A stretch of 38,582 bases of DNA. It comes from a virus. The notes under the pieces are model-generated. The model worked only from the letters and a program-made list of their open reading frames with translations, had not been told where the DNA came from and searched no databases. The stretch is taken from IMG/VR virus record IMGVR_UViG_3300045988_041360, positions 1-38,582 of that record. One strand, written 5' to 3'. The position numbers and the translations under genes were made by a program. Below, piece by piece: positions 3,434-29,792 of this stretch (positions are counted from its first letter, which is position 1; each line of letters opens with the position of its first letter).

Positions 3434-3510
3434 GCAGACGTAGCTCAGTAGGCAAGAGCGTTTCGCCAATAATGAAAAGGTCGCTGGTTCAAGTCCAGCC
3501 GTCTGCACCA
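3434..3510 (+). tRNA. tRNA with encoded CCA; apparent anticodon AAT (Ile-like body) and an atypical anticodon loop CCAATAA
   Basis: Hand-folded cloverleaf: acceptor GCAGACG/CGTCTGC, D arm GCTC-AGTAGGCAA-GAGC, anticodon stem TTTCG/TGAAA, T arm GCTGG-TTCAAGT-CCAGC, discriminator A, CCA. Confidence 0.8.
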
Positions 3511-5094: not shown

Positions 5095-5169
5095 GCGGCG
5101 GTAGTTTAACGGTAAAACGTTCCGCATCCTGCGGAAAGATGGCGGTTCAACTCCGACCTCGCTGCTCCA
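5095..5169 (+). tRNA. tRNA-Gly(TCC)-like gene with encoded CCA, an aberrant anticodon loop (CATCCTG) and a bulged T stem; possibly non-canonical or a pseudo-tRNA
   Basis: Acceptor GCGGCGG/TCGCTGC (two G-U pairs), D arm GTTT-AACGGTA-AAAC (Gly-UCC type), anticodon stem TTCCG/CGGAA, 4-nt variable loop, T arm GGCGG-TTCAACT-CCG(A)CC, discriminator T, CCA. Confidence 0.5.
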
Positions 5170-18899: not shown

Positions 18900-19802
18900 A
18901 TGGCGATCAAAACAGTACAGGCAATTATCAACGGCCAAGCGTACACGCTGACCCTCAACAGCGGAACAGGGAAGTACGAGGCCACCATCATAGCGCCGGG
19001 GAAAACGTCCTATCACCAAACCGGCGGCTACTACAACGTACAGGTCAAGGCCACCAATGAGGCCGGGACGGTGGGTACGGCGGATGCCTCCACCATGGCG
19101 GGGCTGAAGCTGGTGGTGCGCGAGCGGGTGGCTCCCGTCATCACCATCATCTCGCCGTCCACCGGCGCATACGTCAGCAACAGCAAGCAGCCGGTAGTCT
19201 TTACCGTTGTGGACGAGACGGACGGCTCCGGCGTGGATCTGTCCACGCTGGTGGTCAAACAGGACGGGGCAGCGGTTGCGTCCTCTGCCATCACCTCCAC
19301 GGCCATTGCACATGGCTATCAGGTGACGTACACCCCGGCTAAGGCCCTCACGGACGGCAGTCACACCGTCACGGTGGACTGCAAGGACCATGACGGCAAC
19401 GCGGCGGCACAGAAGACCACCACCTACAAAGTGGACACCGTACCGCCTACTCTTAACATCACGGCTCCCGTGGCAGGCCTTATTACGGCATCTGCTTCTC
19501 AGACGGTGGCGGGCACCACTAACGATGCCACCAGCAGCCCCGTGACCATCAGCATCACCCTCAACGGTGTGGATCAGGGCGCGGTGACGGTGGCCTCCAA
19601 CGGCAGCTTTACAAAATCTGTAACGCTGCGAGAGGGCAGCAACACCATTGTGGTGACAGCCACGGACGCGGCGGGCCAAAAGGCCACGGTCTCCCGAACG
19701 GTGACACTGGATACCTCCGTGCCGGTCATCAAGTCGGCTACCATTACGCCTAACCCGGTTGACGCGGGCAAGTCGATGGTAATTGCGGTGGAGATCGTAT
19801 GA
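18900..19802 (+). CDS. Ig-like (bacterial Ig repeat) tail-decoration or fibre protein
   Basis: Repeated beta-sandwich-like segments (PVITIISP..., PPTLNITAP..., SVPVIKSATITPNPVD). Confidence 0.65.
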   Translation: MAIKTVQAIINGQAYTLTLNSGTGKYEATIIAPGKTSYHQTGGYYNVQVKATNEAGTVGTADASTMAGLKLVVRERVAPVITIISPSTGAYVSNSKQPVVFTVVDETDGSGVDLSTLVVKQDGAAVASSAITSTAIAHGYQVTYTPAKALTDGSHTVTVDCKDHDGNAAAQKTTTYKVDTVPPTLNITAPVAGLITASASQTVAGTTNDATSSPVTISITLNGVDQGAVTVASNGSFTKSVTLREGSNTIVVTATDAAGQKATVSRTVTLDTSVPVIKSATITPNPVDAGKSMVIAVEIV

Positions 19803-20425: not shown

Positions 20426-21679
20426 ATGAACGACAGAGTATCTTTGTATCCGGGCCGGGTGACGCTGACCCCGGTGGCCGGACAGACCAACACCTACGAT
20501 ATGACCCGGGCGGACCAGCCGACACAGGAGGGCACCCCGCTGAATAAAGCCAGTTTGCTCAAGGATGAAACAGCCCAAAAATACGGATTTGGAGCAGAAG
20601 CGATTCCGGATGATATTTTTGACAGGCTTGCATTTAGAGACCTTCAACATTTTCGCTATGTTGAGTTTTTGAGTAGTATTACATGGAAGGCCCCAAACAA
20701 CATTGTTGGCAATAAAATCCACGTTCTTTGTTGTGGCGGCGGTGGCGGTGGATTCTCTGGAGGCGGTGGAGGTGGCCATATCTCTCAAGCAGATGTAGTT
20801 ATCACTCCTGGCTCTACGTATCCAATTGTTATCGGTGCCGGTGGAGCAGGGGGAGGCGGCTCGAGCGGCAATGCTTCTGGTTTGAATGGCGGAACTACGT
20901 CTGCATTTGGGGTGTCTGCAAATGGCGGCAACGGCGCTTCTGGCAATGATGGCGGCGATGGTGGCTCCGGTGGCGGAGGGGGCGGAGGTAACCCTAACTC
21001 GAACGGTGGCAATGGCAGCTATGGTGGCGGAGGGGGCGGAGGTCCTATGAATAACAAAACCCCTATTACAGGTGGAAAAGGCGGCAATGGCGGTAAATAT
21101 GGAGGTGGCGGCGGAGGCGGTTCTGGATACCTAAATTCGACAGTCCATGGTAATCCTGGGAATGGAGGCACTTACGGTGGTAATGGCGGTTACGGTGGTA
21201 AGGGTAATGGCCCTGCATATCCGACCGATGCTTCCGATGGCACCATTGCCGAGTTCCCAGTAATATTTCCATTCGTTTTAAACACTGGCGGTTTAGCTGG
21301 CATAAAAAATACTGCAACCAATTATGTTGGAGGCGGAGGAGGCGGCGGTTACGGCGGTAATGGCGGTAAAGGAGGTAGCGGGACTTCCTTCGCCTGCGGC
21401 GGAGGAGGCGGCGGATACGGCGGTAATGGCGGTAATGGGCATGGTAATGGCGGTGGGGGCGGAGGAGGCGGCGGTTACGGCGGTAATGGCGGTAATTATG
21501 GCGGTGGAGGCGGCGGATACGGCGGTAATGGCGGTAGTGCTGACTCGCAATATGGCGGTGGTGCTGGTACCCGAGGTGGTGGCGGTGGCGGCGCCTACCA
21601 AACCGACTATGGTGGAGGACCTGGCGGTTCCGGAGTCGTCGCCATTTGGTATTACGTAACCGAGGAGGAATCCAAATGA
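20426..21679 (+). CDS. Glycine-rich tail fibre/receptor-binding candidate
   Basis: N-terminus RVSLYPGRVTLTPVAG...GTPLNKASLL is fibre-like, followed by ITWKAPNN...VLCCGGGGGG and long GGxGG/YGGNGG tracts. Confidence 0.65.
   Translation: MNDRVSLYPGRVTLTPVAGQTNTYDMTRADQPTQEGTPLNKASLLKDETAQKYGFGAEAIPDDIFDRLAFRDLQHFRYVEFLSSITWKAPNNIVGNKIHVLCCGGGGGGFSGGGGGGHISQADVVITPGSTYPIVIGAGGAGGGGSSGNASGLNGGTTSAFGVSANGGNGASGNDGGDGGSGGGGGGGNPNSNGGNGSYGGGGGGGPMNNKTPITGGKGGNGGKYGGGGGGGSGYLNSTVHGNPGNGGTYGGNGGYGGKGNGPAYPTDASDGTIAEFPVIFPFVLNTGGLAGIKNTATNYVGGGGGGGYGGNGGKGGSGTSFACGGGGGGYGGNGGNGHGNGGGGGGGGGYGGNGGNYGGGGGGYGGNGGSADSQYGGGAGTRGGGGGGAYQTDYGGGPGGSGVVAIWYYVTEEESK
21341..21536 (+). repeat. Four dispersed-tandem copies of a 28-nt unit, ggcggcgg(t/a)tacggcggtaatggcggta, inside the fibre gene
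   Basis: Copies start at 21341, 21407, 21467 and 21509; they encode GGGYGGNGG. Confidence 0.85.
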
Positions 21680-22866: not shown

Positions 22867-23187
22867 ATGAACAAGATCTACGAGAACATCATCAACGAGG
22901 GCAAGAAGAACAGCAAACCCGTGGAGACCATCAACGCCGAACTGAAAGCGGCGGGGGCAAACTTCCACTTGAATCCCGACGGCTCCGTGGCCGGTTGGAC
23001 CGAGGACGAAATGCGGGAGGGCTTCGTCCCCGCTGAGAAGGAGCCGGAGGACGTGAAGCACCTGCATGACTACATGCGGCGTGACCCTGCCAAGGCCAAC
23101 ACCGAGGAGGATGTCTGGGTACCCGAAGGCCATTACCGCATTACTTTTGACGAGGACGGCCACGCCACCAAGGCCGTGCGGATCTGA
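22867..23187 (+). CDS. Hypothetical acidic protein between holin and endolysin
   Basis: 106 aa, AAAGGGGA SD, stop overlaps the endolysin start (TGATG). Confidence 0.55.
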   Translation: MNKIYENIINEGKKNSKPVETINAELKAAGANFHLNPDGSVAGWTEDEMREGFVPAEKEPEDVKHLHDYMRRDPAKANTEEDVWVPEGHYRITFDEDGHATKAVRI

Positions 23188-23672
23188 TGGAGACCATCCA
23201 GCCCCGGACCCGGGCGGCAGTGCTCCGGATCGCGGGTTGGCAGGAGGGCGTCGTTGAGACGCCCTCCTGCTCCAACAAGGTCAAGTACAACGATGCCTAT
23301 TACGGCAAGGCGGTGAGCGGCAGGGCCTTTGCATGGTGTCTGGTGTTTGTGTGGTGGGTATTCCGGGAGGCGGGGTTCAACCTCTACAAAACCGCCAGCT
23401 GCACGACCTTTGTGAACCGCTACCGGGCTTTTTCCCCCGGCCAGATCGTCATGGGGGACTATAAGCCGGGGGATATCGTGTTTTTTGATTTTTCCGGGAA
23501 GCGGAAAAAGACCGAGCACTGCGGGATCGTGACGGCGGTGGACGGCGGCAACGTGCGCACCGTTGAGGGCAACACCGGCACCGGCAACGACGCCAACGGC
23601 GGGGCCGTCATGCGGCGGACGCGGCGTGTTGGGCTGGTGACCTGCGCGATCAGACCGGGCTATCCGGACTAA
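23187..23672 (+). CDS. CHAP-domain peptidoglycan hydrolase (endolysin), no obvious cell-wall-binding domain
   Basis: Catalytic-type motifs AFAWCLVFVWW (Cys) and EHCGIVTAVDGGNVRTVEGNT (His). Confidence 0.85.
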   Translation: METIQPRTRAAVLRIAGWQEGVVETPSCSNKVKYNDAYYGKAVSGRAFAWCLVFVWWVFREAGFNLYKTASCTTFVNRYRAFSPGQIVMGDYKPGDIVFFDFSGKRKKTEHCGIVTAVDGGNVRTVEGNTGTGNDANGGAVMRRTRRVGLVTCAIRPGYPD

Positions 23673-24018: not shown

Positions 24019-24357
24019 TTAGCATGCGTATTTTTGCCAGTAAGGATCTTGATGGACCTGCTGTATCTTGCGGATAGTTTGCGTGGTCCACCATTTGTCT
24101 TTGTAATAGTACTGTGTGTTGTCTCGCACTCCTAGCTCGGCGTCCACCTCTAACTCTGTGATTTTGTTATGGTCGCCAAAATCACAGGGCCGCAGATGCT
24201 CTTTCCCGATGCGGTAGCGGGACCGGTTCCCAGATTTCCAAACTGATAATTCCTCAATTTGCCAATAGCCCTCGATGTCGTAGATAATGTACCCCTCTTG
24301 CTGGCCAACGTCCAGGCGGCCCTCAAAGCTGCGGTAAACCTCTTTCATGTCGCTCAT
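24019..24357 (-). CDS. Hypothetical W/Y-rich protein (109-112 aa), last gene of the minus-strand accessory operon
   Basis: ORF track. The ATG at 24348 (MKEVYR...) has better SD spacing (AGAGGA) than the one at 24357. Confidence 0.6.
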   Translation of the reverse strand: MSDMKEVYRSFEGRLDVGQQEGYIIYDIEGYWQIEELSVWKSGNRSRYRIGKEHLRPCDFGDHNKITELEVDAELGVRDNTQYYYKDKWWTTQTIRKIQQVHQDPYWQKYAC

Positions 24358-24388
24358 CCTCTTTTCTTAACCTTCTGCTCAATTTATT

Positions 24389-24670
24389 TTATATCAAGGA
24401 TCGTACGTCCACTCCCAAGGCATCTGCCAATGCAATGATGTTTTTGGCGGTGAGGTTCCCGGCCTCCGCCTCGCCCAGCTCCACCCGCTGGATCTGGCGG
24501 ATATTAACATCGGACTGCTTGGACAACTCTGCCTGGGTCAGCCCCGCCATGCGGCGGGACCACTCCAGTTTCGTGATGGGACGGTTTCGGCAGTCCCTGC
24601 CACAGCTAACCAGGGAGCAGGCAGTGCAGTCCCCGTCCTCGCGCTGGCAGTCTGCGTATTTCTTGCGCAT
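24389..24670 (-). CDS. XRE-family HTH regulator with an N-terminal Cys cluster
   Basis: CQREDGDCTACSLVSCGRDC followed by MAGLTQAELSKQSDVNIRQIQRVELGE...LADALGVDVRSL. Confidence 0.75.
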   Translation of the reverse strand: MRKKYADCQREDGDCTACSLVSCGRDCRNRPITKLEWSRRMAGLTQAELSKQSDVNIRQIQRVELGEAEAGNLTAKNIIALADALGVDVRSLI

Positions 24671-24682
24671 CGTTGGTCTCCT

Positions 24683-24877
24683 TTAGAGTTTGATTTCCGG
24701 TGTGTAGTATAGCACTTCGTACTTTCGATCTTGGGCGCCGACAGGCTTTCTGACGATAGCGGTTGTTTCTTCCCCGGTAACCCGCTTTACAAGCGCGTAG
24801 CCGTAAAAATAGCCGTCTTCCACAAATGTTTTTCCGGGGACCTGTTCCAGCCTTTGAATCAATTCGTTTTTCTCCAT
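24683..24877 (-). CDS. Hypothetical protein (64 aa)
   Basis: ORF track; tightly packed in the operon; GGAGG-type SD (AGGGAGGAAAG) upstream. Confidence 0.55.
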   Translation of the reverse strand: MEKNELIQRLEQVPGKTFVEDGYFYGYALVKRVTGEETTAIVRKPVGAQDRKYEVLYYTPEIKL

Positions 24878-24891
24878 CGTTCTTTCCTCCC

Positions 24892-25161
24892 TTATTTCAA
24901 ATAACGATTCGTTTGGGAAACCACGGCCATGCCGACCTGCTCCGGGGTGCTGTTGAAGTTTACGAAGCGGAGAACATCAATCAGCTTACTGGCGTACTCT
25001 ACGGAGTTGATGCGGTTGATCTGGAAGTCAATCCCCTTGTTCCACATCTCGATGTTTGCCTTGCCGAGGTCGTTGGGGTTTTCTCTCATCCACTCCAATG
25101 CGGCGATGGCTTTAACCTTGAGATCTTCGGCCCACGCGATCTGCTTCTCAGTACCCTTCAT
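24892..25161 (-). CDS. Hypothetical protein (89 aa) with an N-terminal GTEKQIAWAEDLK motif, first gene of the operon
   Basis: GGAGG SD 8 nt upstream; strong promoter upstream. Confidence 0.6.
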   Translation of the reverse strand: MKGTEKQIAWAEDLKVKAIAALEWMRENPNDLGKANIEMWNKGIDFQINRINSVEYASKLIDVLRFVNFNSTPEQVGMAVVSQTNRYLK

Positions 25162-25201
25162 AATTATTTCCTCCTTGGGTTGCCCCTCTCTTTATGCTTT
25201 T

Positions 25202-25230
25202 AATATACGCTAATATTAGCGTAAAGTCAA
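25202..25230 (-). promoter_or_regulatory. Sigma-A-type promoter (TTGACT-17-TATATT) whose spacer is filled by a perfect 16-bp palindrome ACGCTAATATTAGCGT (25207-25222)
   Basis: Read on the minus strand: TTGACTttacgctaatattagcgTATATT, about 35 nt upstream of the GGAGG/ATG of 24892..25161. Confidence 0.7.
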
Positions 25231-25293
25231 GAGAAAAGAGCAAAAAAGTCAAAATATTTTTAAGCCAGTTTGAGGGCAGAATACAGGCAGTTT

Positions 25294-25320
25294 CCGGGCA
25301 GTTTGGCTGTCCGGTTTTTT
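25294..25320 (+). terminator. Hairpin plus T6 (terminator/attenuator-like) in the leader 38 nt upstream of the 25359 ATG
   Basis: CCGGGCAG-tttgg-CTGTCCGG (one G-U pair) followed by TTTTTT. Confidence 0.5.
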
Positions 25321-25358
25321 GCTACCATTTAAGTAGATCAAGGAGGTGCCAAAACTCC

Positions 25359-25739
25359 ATGTACAGCTATTTTAATCAAAATCCCTGTGGGAAAAATGTG
25401 GGAGACTGCACTGTGCGGGCAATCTCCAAAGCTACCGGAAAAGACTGGGGTGAGACGTATCTGCGGCTTTGCATCCAGGGATACATGGACGGCGATATGC
25501 CGTCCGCCAATGCTTGCTGGGGCCGGTATCTCAGGGGCCTGGGATACAAGCGGTACATCATTCCGGATACCTGTCCGGAGTGCTACACGGTTGGGCAATT
25601 TGCCCAGGAGCATCCAACAGGCACCTATATCCTGGCTTTGTCCGGCCACGTGGTCTGCGTACAGGACGGCGTGATCTGGGACAGCTGGGACTGCAGCAAC
25701 GAGACAACTCTATATTACTGGGCCAAGGAGGAAGATTGA
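25359..25739 (+). CDS. Cargo operon gene 1: hypothetical protein with possible papain-like Cys/His/Asp residues
   Basis: AGGAGGTG SD; NVGDCTVRAISKA..., LSGHVVCVQDGVIWDSWD. Confidence 0.6.
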   Translation: MYSYFNQNPCGKNVGDCTVRAISKATGKDWGETYLRLCIQGYMDGDMPSANACWGRYLRGLGYKRYIIPDTCPECYTVGQFAQEHPTGTYILALSGHVVCVQDGVIWDSWDCSNETTLYYWAKEED

Positions 25740-25740
25740 C

Positions 25741-26196
25741 ATGGCATACACACCTTACGGTTGGCAAAATCCTTATTACGCGCCGCCCATGCCTGACAAC
25801 CTTATGCAGATGCGGCAGCCGCAAATGCAGCCGATGGCACCGCAGATGCCGCAGGTGCCCCAAGCCCCGCAGAATCCGGTGGCCCAGAGCGGCGTCCAGT
25901 GGGTCAGCGGCGAACAGGAAGCCCGCAACTGGATGATCGCTCCTAACGCTGCCGTGGCGCTGTGGGACAGCACGGCCCCCACGGTGTACCTCAAGCAGGC
26001 AGATGCCAGCGGAAAGCCGTCCCTTAAAATTTACGACCTTGTAGAACGGCCTGAAATGACCCCAGGAGCACCGCAAATCAAAACCGGGGAATATGTCACC
26101 CGGAAAGAATTTGACGCTCTGGTGGCCCTTGTGGGCGAAATTCGGGGCAAAGAAAAGCCCGCGAAGAAAGTAAAGGAGGCTGACGCTGATGGCTAA
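25741..26196 (+). CDS. Cargo operon gene 2: protein with a P/Q/M-rich N-terminus and a globular C-terminal half
   Basis: AAGGAGGAAG SD; PYYAPPMPDNLMQMRQPQMQPMAPQMPQVPQAPQNP then VQWVSGEQEARNWMIAPNAAVALWD. Confidence 0.65.
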   Translation: MAYTPYGWQNPYYAPPMPDNLMQMRQPQMQPMAPQMPQVPQAPQNPVAQSGVQWVSGEQEARNWMIAPNAAVALWDSTAPTVYLKQADASGKPSLKIYDLVERPEMTPGAPQIKTGEYVTRKEFDALVALVGEIRGKEKPAKKVKEADADG

Positions 26197-26407
26197 TCCT
26201 TTTTTTAAGGCCATGGGCGGCGGTCAGATGCCGGGGCCGATGGGCCAATTCCAGCGGCTTATGCAGCAATTTAACCAGTTCCGCACCACGTTTCAGGGAG
26301 ATCCAAAAGCGGAGGTGGAAAAGCTGCTGCAATCCGGCAAAATGAGCCAGCAGCAGCTGAACCAGCTGCAAGAAATGGCGAAGCAGTTTCAAAGTTTGCT
26401 TAAATAA
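26189..26407 (+). CDS. Cargo operon gene 3: 72-aa Q-rich helical protein
   Basis: AAGGAGG SD; overlaps the end of gene 2 by 8 nt. Confidence 0.6.
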   Translation: MANPFFKAMGGGQMPGPMGQFQRLMQQFNQFRTTFQGDPKAEVEKLLQSGKMSQQQLNQLQEMAKQFQSLLK

Positions 26408-26521
26408 GCAAACAAAAAGCAAAATTTAAGCAAGCATCTAAGCAAGGTATTTGATAAATCATTAGGTGAATCAACATCGTGGCCACGATTTGATTGATAA
26501 AATTTTGAAAGGAGAGATATT

Positions 26522-27253
26522 ATGTCTCTATCTGACGGTATGCCGACGATGACCATGCCTGTGGCTCCCGCCAACACCTCCGGCAGCGGAAACGGCTTTG
26601 GCTGGGGCGGTGACGGTGCATGGTGGATCATTATCCTGTTTTTGTTTGTTTTTTGCGGCTGGGGCGGCAACGGATGGGGCAACAACGGCGGCAATGGCGG
26701 CGGCGTGGTCGACGGCTATGTGCTGACATCTGACTTTGCCAATGTCGAGCGCAAGATCGACAGTGTAAATCAGGGTCTTTGCGACGGATTTTACCAGCAG
26801 GCGCAGCTTGTCAACGGCACCAACATGGCGATGGCAAACGGCTTTGCACAGGCCGAGCTTTCCCGCAGCAACCAGCAGGCGGCTCTCATGCAGCAGTTGA
26901 CTGCCATGCAGATGCAGGCCCAGCAGTGCTGCTGCGACCAGCGGGCCGACACGGCACAGATCCGGTATGACATGGCTACGCAGGGCTGCGACACCCGCAA
27001 CACCATCCAGACCGCAACGCGGGACATCATCGACAACGCCAACAGCAACAGCCGCGCAATCCTCGACTTTTTGACCCAGAGCAAGCTGCAGGATCTCCAG
27101 AGCGCCAATCAGGAGCTTCGTCTGGCTGCCTCTCAGGCCGCCCAGAACAACTATCTGATCTCCCAGCTCCGGCCCACGCCCATCCCGGCGTACCAGTCCT
27201 GCAACCCTTGGGCGGCAGGCACGTACAACGGCTGCGGTGGCTGCGGCTGCTGA
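26522..27253 (+). CDS. Cargo operon gene 4: membrane protein with G/W-rich flanks, a Q/N-rich coiled region, a CCC motif and a C-terminal NGCGGCGC
   Basis: AAAGGAGAG SD; GFGWGGDGAWWIIILFLFVFCGWGGNGWGNNGGNGGG; AQQCCCDQR; ends GTYNGCGGCGC. Confidence 0.7.
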   Translation: MSLSDGMPTMTMPVAPANTSGSGNGFGWGGDGAWWIIILFLFVFCGWGGNGWGNNGGNGGGVVDGYVLTSDFANVERKIDSVNQGLCDGFYQQAQLVNGTNMAMANGFAQAELSRSNQQAALMQQLTAMQMQAQQCCCDQRADTAQIRYDMATQGCDTRNTIQTATRDIIDNANSNSRAILDFLTQSKLQDLQSANQELRLAASQAAQNNYLISQLRPTPIPAYQSCNPWAAGTYNGCGGCGC

Positions 27254-27369
27254 CAACTGCACAACGTAGCTTCCCGGCGGTATGACCGGGATGATCGGCC
27301 CCATGCCGATACTGACAACAACGCGGCGGGGCAATAGCTCCGCCGCTGTTACATGAAAGGATTGATTTT

Positions 27370-27792
27370 ATGGCTGAGTATACTAACTCCAATATTGTTG
27401 AGGTCGCGGCAGGCCAAAATGTGCCGCTGACTGAGACATCGGTCAACAGCAAGCACTGCATCGTGCACCGTGAGGGCGCGGGCATTGTGACCCTGCGGGG
27501 CCTCACCAACCAGTGCAAGGCCCGTTTCCGGGTGACGTTTGGCGGCAACATTGCTATCCCCACCGGCGGCACGGTGGAGGCCATTACCGCCGCGCTTGCT
27601 ATCAACGGTGAGCCGCTGACCAGCGCCACGGCTACCGTAACCCCGGCGGCGGTGGAGAACTATTTTAACATTTTTGTCAGCGCCATTGTGGAGGTGCCTC
27701 GGGGCTGCTGCCTGACGGTGGCCATGGAAAATACCAGCACACAGGCGATTAACTTTGCCAACTCCAACCTGACTGTTGACCGTGTGTCGTGA
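27370..27792 (+). CDS. Cargo operon gene 5: beta-rich 140-aa protein (jelly-roll-like guess)
   Basis: ORF track; alternating beta-strand pattern; PRGCCLTVAMEN. Confidence 0.6.
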   Translation: MAEYTNSNIVEVAAGQNVPLTETSVNSKHCIVHREGAGIVTLRGLTNQCKARFRVTFGGNIAIPTGGTVEAITAALAINGEPLTSATATVTPAAVENYFNIFVSAIVEVPRGCCLTVAMENTSTQAINFANSNLTVDRVS

Positions 27793-27805
27793 AAGGAGAC
27801 GGATT

Positions 27806-28189
27806 ATGCGAGATTATGATGATCTGCGGGAGATGCTGTGCAAGGAATTGGACGATCTCTACGATGAAACCGCTAAGAAGGGCGGCGTAAATGCTGCTGA
27901 TCTGGATGCCATCCGGGATATTACCAGTGCCATCAAAAACACCTACAAAATTGAGATGTTTGAGGGCGGCGACTACTCCCGCGATGGAGACTGGGGCGCC
28001 AGCATCCGGGGCACCTATGGCCGGGGGAATTCCTATGCGCGGCGCGGCACCCATTATGTGCGGGGCCACTACAGCCGTGGGAATAGTCAGGAGCGGATGC
28101 GCATGCAACTGGAGGACATGATGCGGGAGGCTGATACTGACGCTGCCCGCGATGCAATCCGCCGCTGCATGGATGCTCTTGGAGACTAA
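27806..28189 (+). CDS. Cargo operon gene 6: helical protein with a central R/G/Y/S-rich segment
   Basis: ATG 27806 after GAAAGGAGA; GGDYSRDGDWGASIRGTYGRGNSYARRGTHYVRGHYSRGNS. Confidence 0.6.
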   Translation: MRDYDDLREMLCKELDDLYDETAKKGGVNAADLDAIRDITSAIKNTYKIEMFEGGDYSRDGDWGASIRGTYGRGNSYARRGTHYVRGHYSRGNSQERMRMQLEDMMREADTDAARDAIRRCMDALGD

Positions 28190-28204
28190 AGGGGGTATGC
28201 CCCC

Positions 28205-28510
28205 ATGGTCGACGAACGCGAACTGTCGTTATGGATTAGCCGGTTAGAAACAGAGGAGTCCAGTTGGGCAAACTATGAAAAGCTGGCGGCGCTGTATATT
28301 ATCCAAAACCAGAACCGGGAACCGATAAGGGAAAGCCGTATGGTTGAGGCTTATTCTGAGGCCCCCGCGCCTGACAGCGATTTCCTCCGGGCGGTGTCTA
28401 ACGTTGACCCGGCCCGTGCGTGGGAAGTCATGGACGAGCTGATGGATAGCTTGAAAGTGGTCAACGAGCGGGTTTATAATAGCGTCATGCGGAAATTGGA
28501 AGCGTTATAA
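28205..28510 (+). CDS. Cargo operon gene 7: hypothetical helical protein (101 aa)
   Basis: ORF track; followed by a terminator. Confidence 0.55.
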   Translation: MVDERELSLWISRLETEESSWANYEKLAALYIIQNQNREPIRESRMVEAYSEAPAPDSDFLRAVSNVDPARAWEVMDELMDSLKVVNERVYNSVMRKLEAL

Positions 28511-28516
28511 AAACGT

Positions 28517-28538
28517 CCCCCGCCTGTATAGGCGGGGG
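28517..28538 (+). terminator. Terminator hairpin at the end of the cargo operon
   Basis: CCCCCGCC-tgtata-GGCGGGGG followed by cgcttta. Confidence 0.6.
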
Positions 28539-28546
28539 CGCTTTAT

Positions 28547-28591
28547 CATCTGTAAATTTCATCTGTAATTTCATCTGTAATTTGATTGTAA
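28547..28591 (+). repeat. Three direct copies of CATCTGTAA (28547, 28560, 28572) plus a degenerate fourth (TGATTGTAA, 28583); candidate integrase arm-type sites (P arm)
   Basis: Read directly: tCATCTGTAAatttCATCTGTAAtttCATCTGTAAtttGATTGTAA. Confidence 0.7.
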
Positions 28592-28667: not shown

Positions 28668-28696
28668 AACCCCGCAATCACAAGGATTGCGGGGTT
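28668..28696 (-). terminator. Terminator belonging to the tRNA fragment (minus strand)
   Basis: AACCCCGCAATC-5 nt-GATTGCGGGGTT, followed on the minus strand by TTCTTTAT. Confidence 0.6.
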
Positions 28697-28723
28697 GGTC
28701 CGAGTGGCGGGAGTCGAACCCGC
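28696..28723 (-). other. attP: attP core candidate: 3' end of a tRNA (T arm, acceptor 3' strand, ACCA); C1-G72/A73 geometry, Pro-like
   Basis: The minus strand reads GCGGGTTCGACTCCCGC-CACTCGG-A-CCA. No matching 5' half is present, so it is a fragment. Confidence 0.65.
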
Positions 28724-28760
28724 ACAAATAACGACTACAACCGTTGGAAACACAAGGTTT

Positions 28761-29792
28761 TTAATTGTTCATCTGTAATTTTATCTGTAATTCTTTTTCG
28801 AAATAGCGATCGAGGTTATCTGCAACCTGCTTTGATTTCTTGCTAATTGTATGCTGATACACGTTTTTAAGCATATTGTTTGTGGCGTGTCCCATTCGCT
28901 CCATAGCGTATTTGTCTGGCACGTTCTGTTCAAGCATTACAGATGCGTTGACGTGGCGCAGATCGTGAAAGCGGAATGGAGGGATATCATGGCGGATACA
29001 AGCGCGTCTTAAATGGTTATACATGGCGCTGCGGGTGTAGTGCACGATATATTCGTCTGTGCGCGGCGTTTCCTTCAGTAGGTGCATTATGTATGGAGGG
29101 ATCTGCAAGCGTCGGTTTCCGCTGTATGTTTTCGGCTGCTTTAACTCAGGCCCGTTTTCACCTTCAACGAGTGCTTGCTTGATGATAAGCGTATTCCCAT
29201 CAATGCAATCCCATGTCAGGCCGCGAATCTCCGATGTTCTTAGACCAAGCCAGACGGCCAGCAGAAACGGCAGCTCAAATTGTTTCCCACGGCAATCCTC
29301 ATGCAGTGTCCGGATCTGGTCCATGGTGGGTATTTTGATTTTTGGAGCTTCCTTCTGTGGCAGCGTAATGCGGAACATCCGATCTGGGAAATATTCTGCC
29401 ATTGCTGCGGTGAACAACCCGTAGGCATTGCGGACGTATTTAGGCGATTTGGAGCGAGCCATTTTATTGACGGCCCGTTGTACACGCTCTTGCGAAATGC
29501 TATCCGCTGGATCATCCATGATTTCCTGGAAAACGGATTTGCGGAGCTTTTTATACCCATTGATCGTAGTAGGGGATAGAACGGTATCTTTGCTGGAGAT
29601 GTATCTATCGATTACTTCTCCAACGGTGAACCTTGTTTTTATCTTGGCGGCTTTGGCACCAGACTTGATGGCGGCAGCTTCATTTTCAGCTTCTCGCTTG
29701 GTCGGAGCCGTGATGGAGAGACGCTTCCCGTCTATCATGATGTTGATATACCATGAGCCGGACGGCAACTTTACCGCCTTCGGTATCTTCAT
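28761..29792 (-). CDS. int: Tyrosine integrase (site-specific recombinase, phage integrase family)
   Basis: GLRTSEIRGLTW..., HDLRHVNASVMLEQNV..., MGHATNNMLKNVYQH (R...HxxR...Y catalytic pattern) and an N-terminal SAM-like/arm-binding domain. Confidence 0.95.
   Translation of the reverse strand: MKIPKAVKLPSGSWYINIMIDGKRLSITAPTKREAENEAAAIKSGAKAAKIKTRFTVGEVIDRYISSKDTVLSPTTINGYKKLRKSVFQEIMDDPADSISQERVQRAVNKMARSKSPKYVRNAYGLFTAAMAEYFPDRMFRITLPQKEAPKIKIPTMDQIRTLHEDCRGKQFELPFLLAVWLGLRTSEIRGLTWDCIDGNTLIIKQALVEGENGPELKQPKTYSGNRRLQIPPYIMHLLKETPRTDEYIVHYTRSAMYNHLRRACIRHDIPPFRFHDLRHVNASVMLEQNVPDKYAMERMGHATNNMLKNVYQHTISKKSKQVADNLDRYFEKELQIKLQMNN
28770..28790 (+). repeat. Two more copies of the (C/T)ATCTGTAA repeat (28770, 28782), inside the 3' end of the integrase gene (P' arm)
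   Basis: ttCATCTGTAAtttTATCTGTAAtt, same orientation as the 28547-28591 copies. Confidence 0.65.

Follow-up and report, generated by a model that had tools for sequence, protein, structure and literature searches.

Gene layout of the cassette

The IMG/VR virus record IMGVR_UViG_3300045988_041360 was analysed over positions 1 to 38,582, and this whole stretch of 38,582 nucleotides is called the window in the following. At 25359-28510 it carries a cassette of seven genes, named g1 to g7 here, in which a first-pass annotation made from the sequence had seen seven same-strand genes with good Shine-Dalgarno sequences, forming a cargo operon of unassigned function. All seven co-directional + strand open reading frames were confirmed in this span, and each of the 7 starts has a Shine-Dalgarno box (GGAGG, AAGGAG or AAAGGA) 6-10 nucleotides (nt) upstream. 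The genes, with the length of their products in amino acids (aa), are:

25359-25739, + strand: g1, 126 aa
25741-26196, + strand: g2, 151 aa
26189-26407, + strand: g3, 72 aa
26522-27253, + strand: g4, 243 aa, core component
27370-27792, + strand: g5, 140 aa, core component
27806-28189, + strand: g6, 127 aa
28205-28510, + strand: g7, 101 aa

The frame of g6 is open from a TTG at 27776, but the start preceded by a Shine-Dalgarno box is the ATG at 27806.

The seven genes form one unit in phages of gut Clostridia

Related loci are numbered by the way in which they were collected. L001-L083 are related loci compared with the seven proteins by tblastn, L084-L166 are loci from genomes and metagenome-assembled genomes (MAGs) found with a profile search, and the others were reached via a tail protein of the window. 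In the 83 tblastn loci all seven genes stand in the same order wherever the contig extends far enough, and the integrase, the lysin and the minus-strand genes of these loci are usually unrelated to those of the window. The seven-gene order is also kept in most of L084-L166. The profile search gave 80 genome and MAG loci with g5 proteins 45-91% identical to that of the window; in all of them g4 lies next to g5, and as a rule the genes run g1-g2-g3-g4-g5-g6. Such a grouping is far beyond chance, and the seven genes are one co-inherited unit, which travels in the same order through about 80 IMG/VR loci, Clostridia prophages and the Butyrivibrio phage Ceridwen. Neither a match to known families with unrelated functions nor a lack of co-occurrence in other genomes was found: the order is conserved, and no protein could be assigned to a family of known function. 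The operon of seven genes proposed initially holds as a unit of conserved order, but in most relatives an additional small gene, g0, lies upstream of g1, and this gene is absent from the window.

With few exceptions the 80 loci belong to Clostridia (Oscillospiraceae, Lachnospiraceae, Ruminococcus, Subdoligranulum and Acutalibacteraceae), and Agathobacter was found as well. Relatives of g5 occur in at least 579 IMG/VR stretches and amount to 7717 clusters at 90% identity and 581 clusters at 50% identity. Among the best 150 of the 581 representatives at 50% identity, the proteins are 72-196 aa long, mostly about 140 aa, and no fusions were seen. The family comes almost entirely from human and animal gut phages of Clostridia. 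In the Dulem viruses 33, 35 and 39 and in the cultured Butyrivibrio phage Ceridwen the cassette is annotated as 'hypothetical proteins'. Among the clusters that were looked up, no named cultured lysogen came to light.

Some contigs with the cassette had been binned as Alistipes, Alloprevotella, Akkermansia, Collinsella or Methanobrevibacter (the latter being L117, CACYVR010000001.1, 138 kb). Most contigs in these non-Clostridia bins are about 40 kb long, a phage size, and for these the assignments are probably binning errors.

g5 is predicted to be a TNF/C1q-like jelly roll

The invariant core pair of the cassette is g4 and g5. The most conserved gene of all is g5 (phrog_20016), the product of which carries an invariant GCC motif. 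Its AlphaFold2 (AF2) model, obtained with a diverse alignment, is all-beta with a predicted local distance difference test (pLDDT) score of 94.3. The initial guess for this 140-aa all-beta protein, a jelly-roll or TNF-like fold as in exosporium or appendage subunits, agrees with both the model and a Foldseek search against the PDB, in which 9h38, 9h3d, 7r1m, 8d02 and 1wck were matched with template modelling (TM) scores of 0.70-0.76 and E values of 7e-7 to 1e-5. The nearest folds are BclA-C, F-BclA and ExsF/BxpB, followed by EDA, 4-1BBL, C1q and phage fibre knobs. In the model the protein is a compact ten-strand jelly roll that can be superimposed on the C-terminal domain of BclA, on ExsF or on C1q.

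In BFVD the nearest structures are uncharacterised gut-phage proteins of about 135 aa, some of which are named 'BclA protein'. Like g5, these proteins of gut Siphoviridae, Podoviridae and Myoviridae (for example A0A8S5U2A1 and A0A8S5S925) have the same fold and size (TM 0.81-0.93), but they are only 17-29% identical to it. Judged from the models, they and g5 probably belong to the same superfamily of phage proteins. A related protein from a shorter, type-B form of the cassette (described below), g5', reaches 24.1 bits against the Pfam family BclA_C, for which the cut-off is 38, and a jackhmmer search started from g5' recovers the type-A g5 family to which the window protein belongs. BclA_C is matched by 2 of 68 g5 relatives, with a best E value of 7e-7; like that of g5', these matches lie beneath or close to the threshold.

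Compared with ExsF/BxpB (ExsFA) and the C-terminal domain of BclA from the exosporium of the Bacillus cereus group, g5 shares the TNF/C1q jelly roll, and like ExsF it is small, stands alone and has no signal peptide. Its partners carry conserved proline-rich peptides, which are reminiscent of the exosporium leaders that dock to ExsF (PMC12357932). In contrast, the sequence identity of g5 to ExsF and BclA is 10-13%, it is encoded by phages, and it lacks a collagen-like repeat, an exosporium leader motif and an N-terminal extension. It is not a BclA protein proper: the domain occurs on its own, with neither an exosporium leader (TIGR03720 in NCBIfam) nor GXY collagen repeats. In addition its constant partner, g4, is a membrane protein, for which the exosporium has no counterpart. 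Independent of function, this would be the first ExsF/BclA-type TNF-fold protein with a dedicated membrane partner outside sporulation loci.

g1 is a putative Cys-His-Asp enzyme

For g1 (phrog_3754) a papain-like peptidase had been suggested from the spacing of Cys, His and Asp. The AF2 model (pLDDT 94.5) is alpha/beta. In it Cys17 lies where a helix begins and two neighbouring strands carry His97 and Asp108, a placement that fits a papain-like cysteine peptidase or transglutaminase. None of the three residues varies, either in 9 sequences down to 46% identity (A1) or in 67 sequences (A4). This part of the suggestion stands, namely invariant residues in a papain-like placement, but the fold search gave it no statistical support. 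The layout of a Cys on a helix and His and Asp on strands is that of clan CA peptidases such as C39 (LahT, 6mpz), Josephin (6pgv) and CHAP (4olk). Unlike these, g1 gives no family-level match (Foldseek E ≥ 0.23, TM ≤ 0.46), is with 126 aa below the size of known members, and has neither an ABC transporter nor another usual partner beside it. Neither Pfam nor NCBIfam contains a match for g1. The protein is a putative minimal papain-like (Cys-His-Asp) enzyme of a new family, which would be of interest whatever the function of the cassette.

Two other readings of g1 were dropped. A zinc site as the main role of His97 is unlikely because CxxC is lost in 2 of the 9 diverse members while C17, H97 and D108 are invariant. 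Also a C39/bacteriocin system does not fit, as there is no ABC transporter and no C39 match, and the N-terminus of g3 is unlike a double-glycine leader.

g4 and the low-complexity partners

The second core protein, g4 (phrog_16490), starts with an acidic N-tail with a conserved MPVxP motif, followed by one hydrophobic segment flanked by G/W/N-rich stretches. Behind this segment lie a long helical Q/N-rich domain, an invariant CCC (aa 136-138), the motif RPxPxPAY and a Cys-rich end, GCGC; in total g4 contains 10 Cys. Type-B relatives of g4 keep the transmembrane segment and the CCC. No holin or spanin match was obtained for g4 in Pfam or PHROG.

The other proteins are of low complexity or helical. 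The N-terminus of g2 (phrog_21718) is Y/P/Q/M-rich (NPYYxPPMPD...) and is followed by a small globular domain and a C-terminal helix. g3 (phrog_22984) is Gln/Met-rich and helical, with 20% Gln and a conserved N-terminal NPFF..GGG motif. g6 is helical with an R/G/Y/S/D-rich low-complexity centre and co-varies with g7; its match to phrog_28802 is weak but strong for the homologue in L085. g7 is acidic and helical. What stands at its position varies: some relatives have a fusion protein there, in which a DUF7841 domain follows the same 36 N-terminal residues. The compositions noted in the first pass (P/Q/M-rich N-terminus of g2, Q-rich g3, G/W flanks and Cys in g4, RG/YS centre in g6) were thus all correct.

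In Pfam and NCBIfam nothing was found for the seven proteins, and PHROGs gave only families of 'unknown function'. PADLOC-DB 2.0 yielded no match for six of them and one match at chance level for g3 (E 0.008, 13.5 bits). Sequence and profile searches of the PDB with g1, g2, g4, g5, g6 and g7 retrieved nothing relevant, and neither did a search of the literature for phage BclA-like proteins, DUF7841 or C1q-like morons. In line with the earlier statement that the genes match no described system, the cassette is new as a system as far as the absence of any match in these searches can tell; no new mechanism is demonstrated by this. A classical defence that targets nucleic acids had been judged the less likely option, and no such domain came up in the Pfam, PADLOC and NCBIfam searches. 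None of the seven proteins has a signal peptide, which makes a secreted product or a surface appendage, two other options considered at the outset, unlikely for vegetative cells unless they are released by lysis.

The folds and compositions are fitted best by a role at the spore surface. The cassette would then be expressed in the mother cell of sporulating lysogens and give the spore an additional layer or anchor of the exosporium or coat kind, an explanation that we regard as improbable. Under it, and just as doubtfully, g5 would take the part of ExsF/BxpB, g4 that of a Cys-rich lattice or anchor, g2, g3 and g6 those of coat-like substrates, and g1 that of a Tgl-like cross-linker or a leader peptidase. 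The structures that g5 matches best are without exception those of exosporium or appendage proteins, and some of its relatives match BclA_C. The Cys-rich, Q-rich and Y/S/R-rich composition resembles that of the coat proteins CotG, CotC and GerQ. Missing signal peptides are as expected for assembly in the mother cell, the hosts are Clostridia, and the unit has its own regulatory region, as well as in some cassettes a small gene that resembles sigma-70 region 4 (a reading from the sequence, which Pfam does not support in L100). However, the cassette is found intact in Ceridwen, a phage of Butyrivibrio fibrisolvens that was seen only in the lytic cycle, and often lies inside head or tail gene clusters. 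B. fibrisolvens is known as non-sporulating, and the lineages Subdoligranulum and Agathobacter are not known to sporulate either. Moreover, the searches gave no match to the exosporium leader (TIGR03720), to a collagen repeat or to the GerQ and Tgl families, and there was no match in the Bacillus phages of a collection of 50,697 records. It is a similarly long shot that the cassette is a self-contained kit for an exosporium-like, cross-linked layer, with a TNF-fold hub, a Cys-rich anchor, Gln/Tyr-rich substrates and a Cys-His-Asp enzyme. If it were, phages would remodel the spore surface or the inner envelope face of their hosts, a widespread and so far unseen form of conversion by gut phages.

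Position, dispensability and variants of the cassette

In the window the CHAP endolysin gene (23187-23672) is followed by four minus-strand genes (24019-25161) and then by the cassette, downstream of which lies a tyrosine integrase gene (28761-29792, - strand; Pfam E 7e-15). The proposed place between the lysis region and attP is therefore right on the attP side, but on the other side the four minus-strand genes part the cassette from the endolysin. Nor is this place characteristic, since what had been called the lysogenic-conversion position is merely one of at least five in which the cassette occurs, and Ceridwen carries it as well. On its upstream side the cassette mostly borders on lysis genes (about 30 of the 140 flanking proteins) or Phage_min_cap2, and on its downstream side on integrases, repressor-like helix-turn-helix (HTH) proteins, scaffold proteins and host genes. 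The cassette stands between the minor capsid protein and the scaffold or major capsid genes in L085, L114 and L153, beside tail-fibre-like genes in L133 and L157, after the integrase in L086, and before helicase-like early genes in L128 and L140. A constant tail-fibre gene 3' of the cassette could be ruled out, as the downstream genes are heterogeneous and include also capsid and helicase-like genes.

For a comparison of closely related phages, these were chosen via the tail protein encoded at 18900-19799, since the tail-fibre gene at 20426-21676 had too few relatives. Among phages with a 94-95% identical tail protein, L176, L178, L183, L186 and L219 have the full cassette, and L180 and L221 have the type-B mini-cassette instead. 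The type-B set consists of a g4-like protein with transmembrane segment and CCC (180-204 aa), a 132-aa BclA_C-like protein and a DUF7841 protein, and it is also present in L216 (tail protein 81% identical). L184 (95%) carries g2-, g3- and g4-like genes and a DUF7841 gene, without a BclA-like gene. In L189 and L209 (82%) there is no cassette and the integrase follows directly after the lysis region. The loci of these variants are:

L180 17419-19107, L221, and L216 16622-18245: type-B set, at the same locus as the window cassette
L184 18448-20065: variant without BclA-like gene

Copies of g5 that are 96-99% identical lie beside unrelated flanks, and within the cassette g2, g4 and the pair g6-g7 are exchanged independently. 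This variable presence among tail-related phages, together with the many junctions, identifies the cassette as a dispensable, horizontally mobile and autonomous accessory cassette of gut Clostridia phages. As for morons (lambda bor and lom, or the toxin genes at the lysis-att junction of Gram-positive prophages), it is dispensable, varies in presence and position among related phages and is inserted between core modules, and it appears from its sequence to have a leader hairpin, a 3' hairpin and upstream regulatory signals of its own. It differs from morons in that seven to eight genes are kept as a unit across thousands of phages, that no product is secreted, and that it occurs also in structural modules and in a probably virulent phage.

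In a further variant (L086, L107, L117, L126, L129 and L160) genes of about 200-290 aa and about 105 aa stand behind g4-g5. Homing endonucleases (GIY-YIG, HNH) and other selfish genes were found at the g3/g4 and g4/g5 junctions, homing endonucleases in addition at g5/g6; in L047 and L071 g4 is in two halves with a GIY-YIG gene between them, a layout suggestive of an intron or a split gene. Lachnospiraceae prophages that carry the cassette in their head module have, between g1 and g2, a gene for a protein of 84-90 aa, plus one for a small transmembrane protein. From its sequence, the 84-90-aa protein may be a sigma-70 region-4-like or ArpU-like regulator; for the L100 copy Pfam gave no support. 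The respective loci are:

L047 2108-4135, L071, L001 12944-13495 and L084 9449-10312: homing endonuclease loci
L100 5335-5589, L103 4816-5088 and L120 2875-3132: 84-90-aa protein

With these positions a role in the virus particle has to be considered. A virion role had been denied to all seven genes in the first pass. For a core role this is in agreement with the data, by which the cassette is unlikely to belong to the virion core and belongs to the replication genes just as little, but an accessory virion role keeps some probability. Such an accessory appendage would be a kind of 'split BclA' fibre, with a trimeric coiled coil of g4 as the shaft, a g5 trimer as its cap and the other proteins as assembly factors. 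We consider this unlikely, and likewise that it would act as an adhesin which, like side tail fibres or head fibres, is dispensable and can be exchanged. In its favour, phage fibres often carry TNF-like knobs at their tips (9eul, 8ke9 and tail-fibre entries). The cassette is co-directional with the late genes and lies sometimes amid structural or tail-fibre-like genes (L085, L133, L157), and side fibres are dispensable and mosaic, which matches the variable presence among tail-related phages. The strong conservation of g5 would fit too, as would the clustering of homing endonucleases in the cassette, a pattern also seen in the vicinity of conserved late genes. Against such a fibre, g4 has a very hydrophobic segment of the membrane type and no recognisable domain for attachment to the virion. 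Near-identical g5 and g4 go along with tail and lysis modules that are not related to each other, and they do so in predicted sipho-, podo- and myoviruses, so that nothing on the particle stands out as a constant docking partner. Positions after the integrase or before early genes (L086, L128, L140), the cassette's own regulatory region and a divergent XRE gene are further difficulties for this explanation.

The frequent vicinity to lysis genes, which are the commonest upstream neighbours, would also suit an accessory of lysis or egress, with g4 acting like a holin or an i-spanin and its partners tuning the timing of lysis or breaching an extra envelope layer. The architecture of g4 (N-terminal transmembrane segment, coiled coil, cysteines) recalls i-spanins and proteins of the BhlA/XhlA type. 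Of the explanations weighed here we give this one the least credit, as the hosts are monoderm and spanins would be expected with a diderm host, many cassettes have no lysis genes nearby, the Pfam and PHROG searches matched neither a holin nor a spanin family, and the cassette is dispensable in a phage that already encodes a holin-like gene and a CHAP endolysin.

A place between lysis region and integrase, and presence in some but not all of a set of near-identical phages, are usual for prophage defence islands, and the mini-cassette of two to three genes resembles small defence operons. The unit is apparently self-regulated, and a membrane protein with a soluble partner is a common effector/sensor layout. 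A new anti-phage system acting by abortive infection or superinfection exclusion, in which g5 would be the sensor, g4 the membrane effector and g1 an assisting enzyme, nevertheless seems unlikely to us: PADLOC was negative, no nuclease, NTPase, TIR, SIR2 or similar domain was found, and low-complexity proteins are unlike known defence components. Neither is the extreme conservation of g5 expected of a sensor in an arms race, and the cassette is also carried by a probably virulent phage and inside structural modules.

Probable control region upstream of the cassette

Between the divergent minus-strand unit and g1, and behind g7, three elements were found:

25199-25230, no strand: inverted repeat with the perfect 16-bp palindromic core ACGCTAATATTAGCGT, found by a repeat search
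25264-25328, + strand: cassette leader or regulatory region with repeats, hairpin and -10-like element
28517-28538, no strand: G+C-rich hairpin at the 3' end of the cassette

The inverted repeat overlaps a promoter-like site (25230-25202) of the divergent four-gene unit. This unit encodes an XRE/HTH_3 protein (24389-24670, - strand) with a match to HTH_3 and a Cys-rich N-terminus, and the palindrome is therefore likely to be an operator, a candidate read from the sequence. In L003, L005, L078, L082 and L219, too, the cassette has a homologue of this HTH gene upstream of it.

In the leader four direct repeats GSCAGWWT with 11-nt spacing start at 25264, 25275, 25286 and 25297. They are followed by a hairpin (25294-25314) with a run of six T and then by TGcTACCAT, which resembles an extended -10 element. 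A consensus promoter scan called no + strand promoter in the leader, Rfam gave no match there, and its fold energy is not better than that of shuffled sequences (z = -0.88). The same layout with lineage-specific repeat sequences is present 5' of the cassette in many related loci. Taken together, we infer a dedicated, regulator-dependent control region, which may act as promoter, attenuator or both. When the whole window was scanned, the repeat and the -10-like motif were confined to the region upstream of the cassette. The idea of co-regulation by a shared late promoter motif was dropped because the leader motif occurs nowhere else in the window, for example not at the start of the late operon. 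The loci L009, L010, L045, L058, L059, L063, L081 and L083 have three to four direct repeats spaced with a period of 11 nt, then a hairpin, a T-run and TTGTACCATA-like elements; from their appearance the repeats may be an array to which a co-evolving regulator binds.

The hairpin at 28517-28538 is present where a terminator had been predicted to end the operon, but the terminator scan scored it on the - strand, where it is followed by the T-run ACGTTTTTAT. As the tail on the + strand is only moderately T-rich and the - strand is the one that was scored, the hairpin may work in both directions.

A membrane-attached assembly is the favoured explanation

As the most plausible function we favour a membrane-attached assembly that alters the host envelope, either excluding other phages or controlling membrane integrity or lysis. 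We give this reading, which is built largely on analogy, a probability of about 0.3. The products would assemble in the cytoplasm, because none of them has a signal peptide. g4 would anchor the assembly at the inner face of the membrane, as its acidic N-tail would be outside and arginines follow the hydrophobic segment, a weak positive-inside argument. g5 would trimerise and serve as a docking hub like ExsF/BxpB in the exosporium, binding the proline-rich peptides of g4 (MPVxP and RPxPxPAY), g2 (NPYYxPPMPD) and g3 (NPFF..QMPGP). Vicinal cysteines, CCC in g4 and GCC in g5, may hold a metal or form cross-links, since they are conserved in both core partners and in both types of cassette. g1 would process or cross-link the Gln-rich, low-complexity partners. 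This role is plausible in view of the exosporium, where clefts of the ExsF trimer take up leader peptides and proteolysis trims the leader of BclA (PMC12357932). The result would be a protein layer on the membrane by which infected or lysogenic cells would acquire an altered envelope, and no activity on nucleic acids would be expected.

Several points weigh against the membrane-attached assembly. The docking hub is held with low confidence, as it is derived from the analogy of folds and from conserved Pro-rich motifs in g2, g3 and g4, and the topology of g4 is a weak argument from few charges. The window g5 has no Pfam match at E ≤ 1 and falls short of the gathering cut-off of PF18573. For g1 the Foldseek search was not significant (best E 0.23), with Josephin, C39 and CHAP at TM 0.30-0.46, and His97 lies within a CxxC...HxxC-like pattern, by which zinc could be bound in most, though not all, members. 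The cassette is often situated in late or structural regions and is present in Ceridwen, seen only in the lytic cycle, with which a virion-associated role or one at the time of lysis fits equally well. Finally, we know of no exclusion function that would need anything near seven to eight genes. If a role in the envelope, at the spore surface or in exclusion were true, the cassette would represent a major, so far unrecognised interface between phages and their hosts in the gut. The cultured phage Ceridwen on Butyrivibrio fibrisolvens offers a tractable system.

The probable attachment region and tRNA genes

The attP side of the cassette, as seen in the first pass, is confirmed by the integrase gene and by a tRNA 3' fragment between this gene and the cassette. 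The fragment, GTGCGGGTTCGACTCCCGCCACTCGGACCA, is 30 nt long, ends in CCA and is located at 28696-28725 on the - strand. ARAGORN makes no tRNA call at this position because the fragment is partial. Beyond the terminal hairpin, at 28547-28583, there are three CATCTGTAA(A)TTT repeats, and CATCTGTAATTT-type direct repeats stand on both sides of the fragment (28547-28583 and 28770-28793). The tRNA fragment and the flanking repeats probably represent the attP core and the arm sites of the integrase. A further hairpin (28668-28696) precedes the fragment. Elsewhere, the phage carries two complete tRNA genes, one for Ile (anticodon AAT) at 3434-3510 and one for Gly (anticodon TCC) at 5095-5169.

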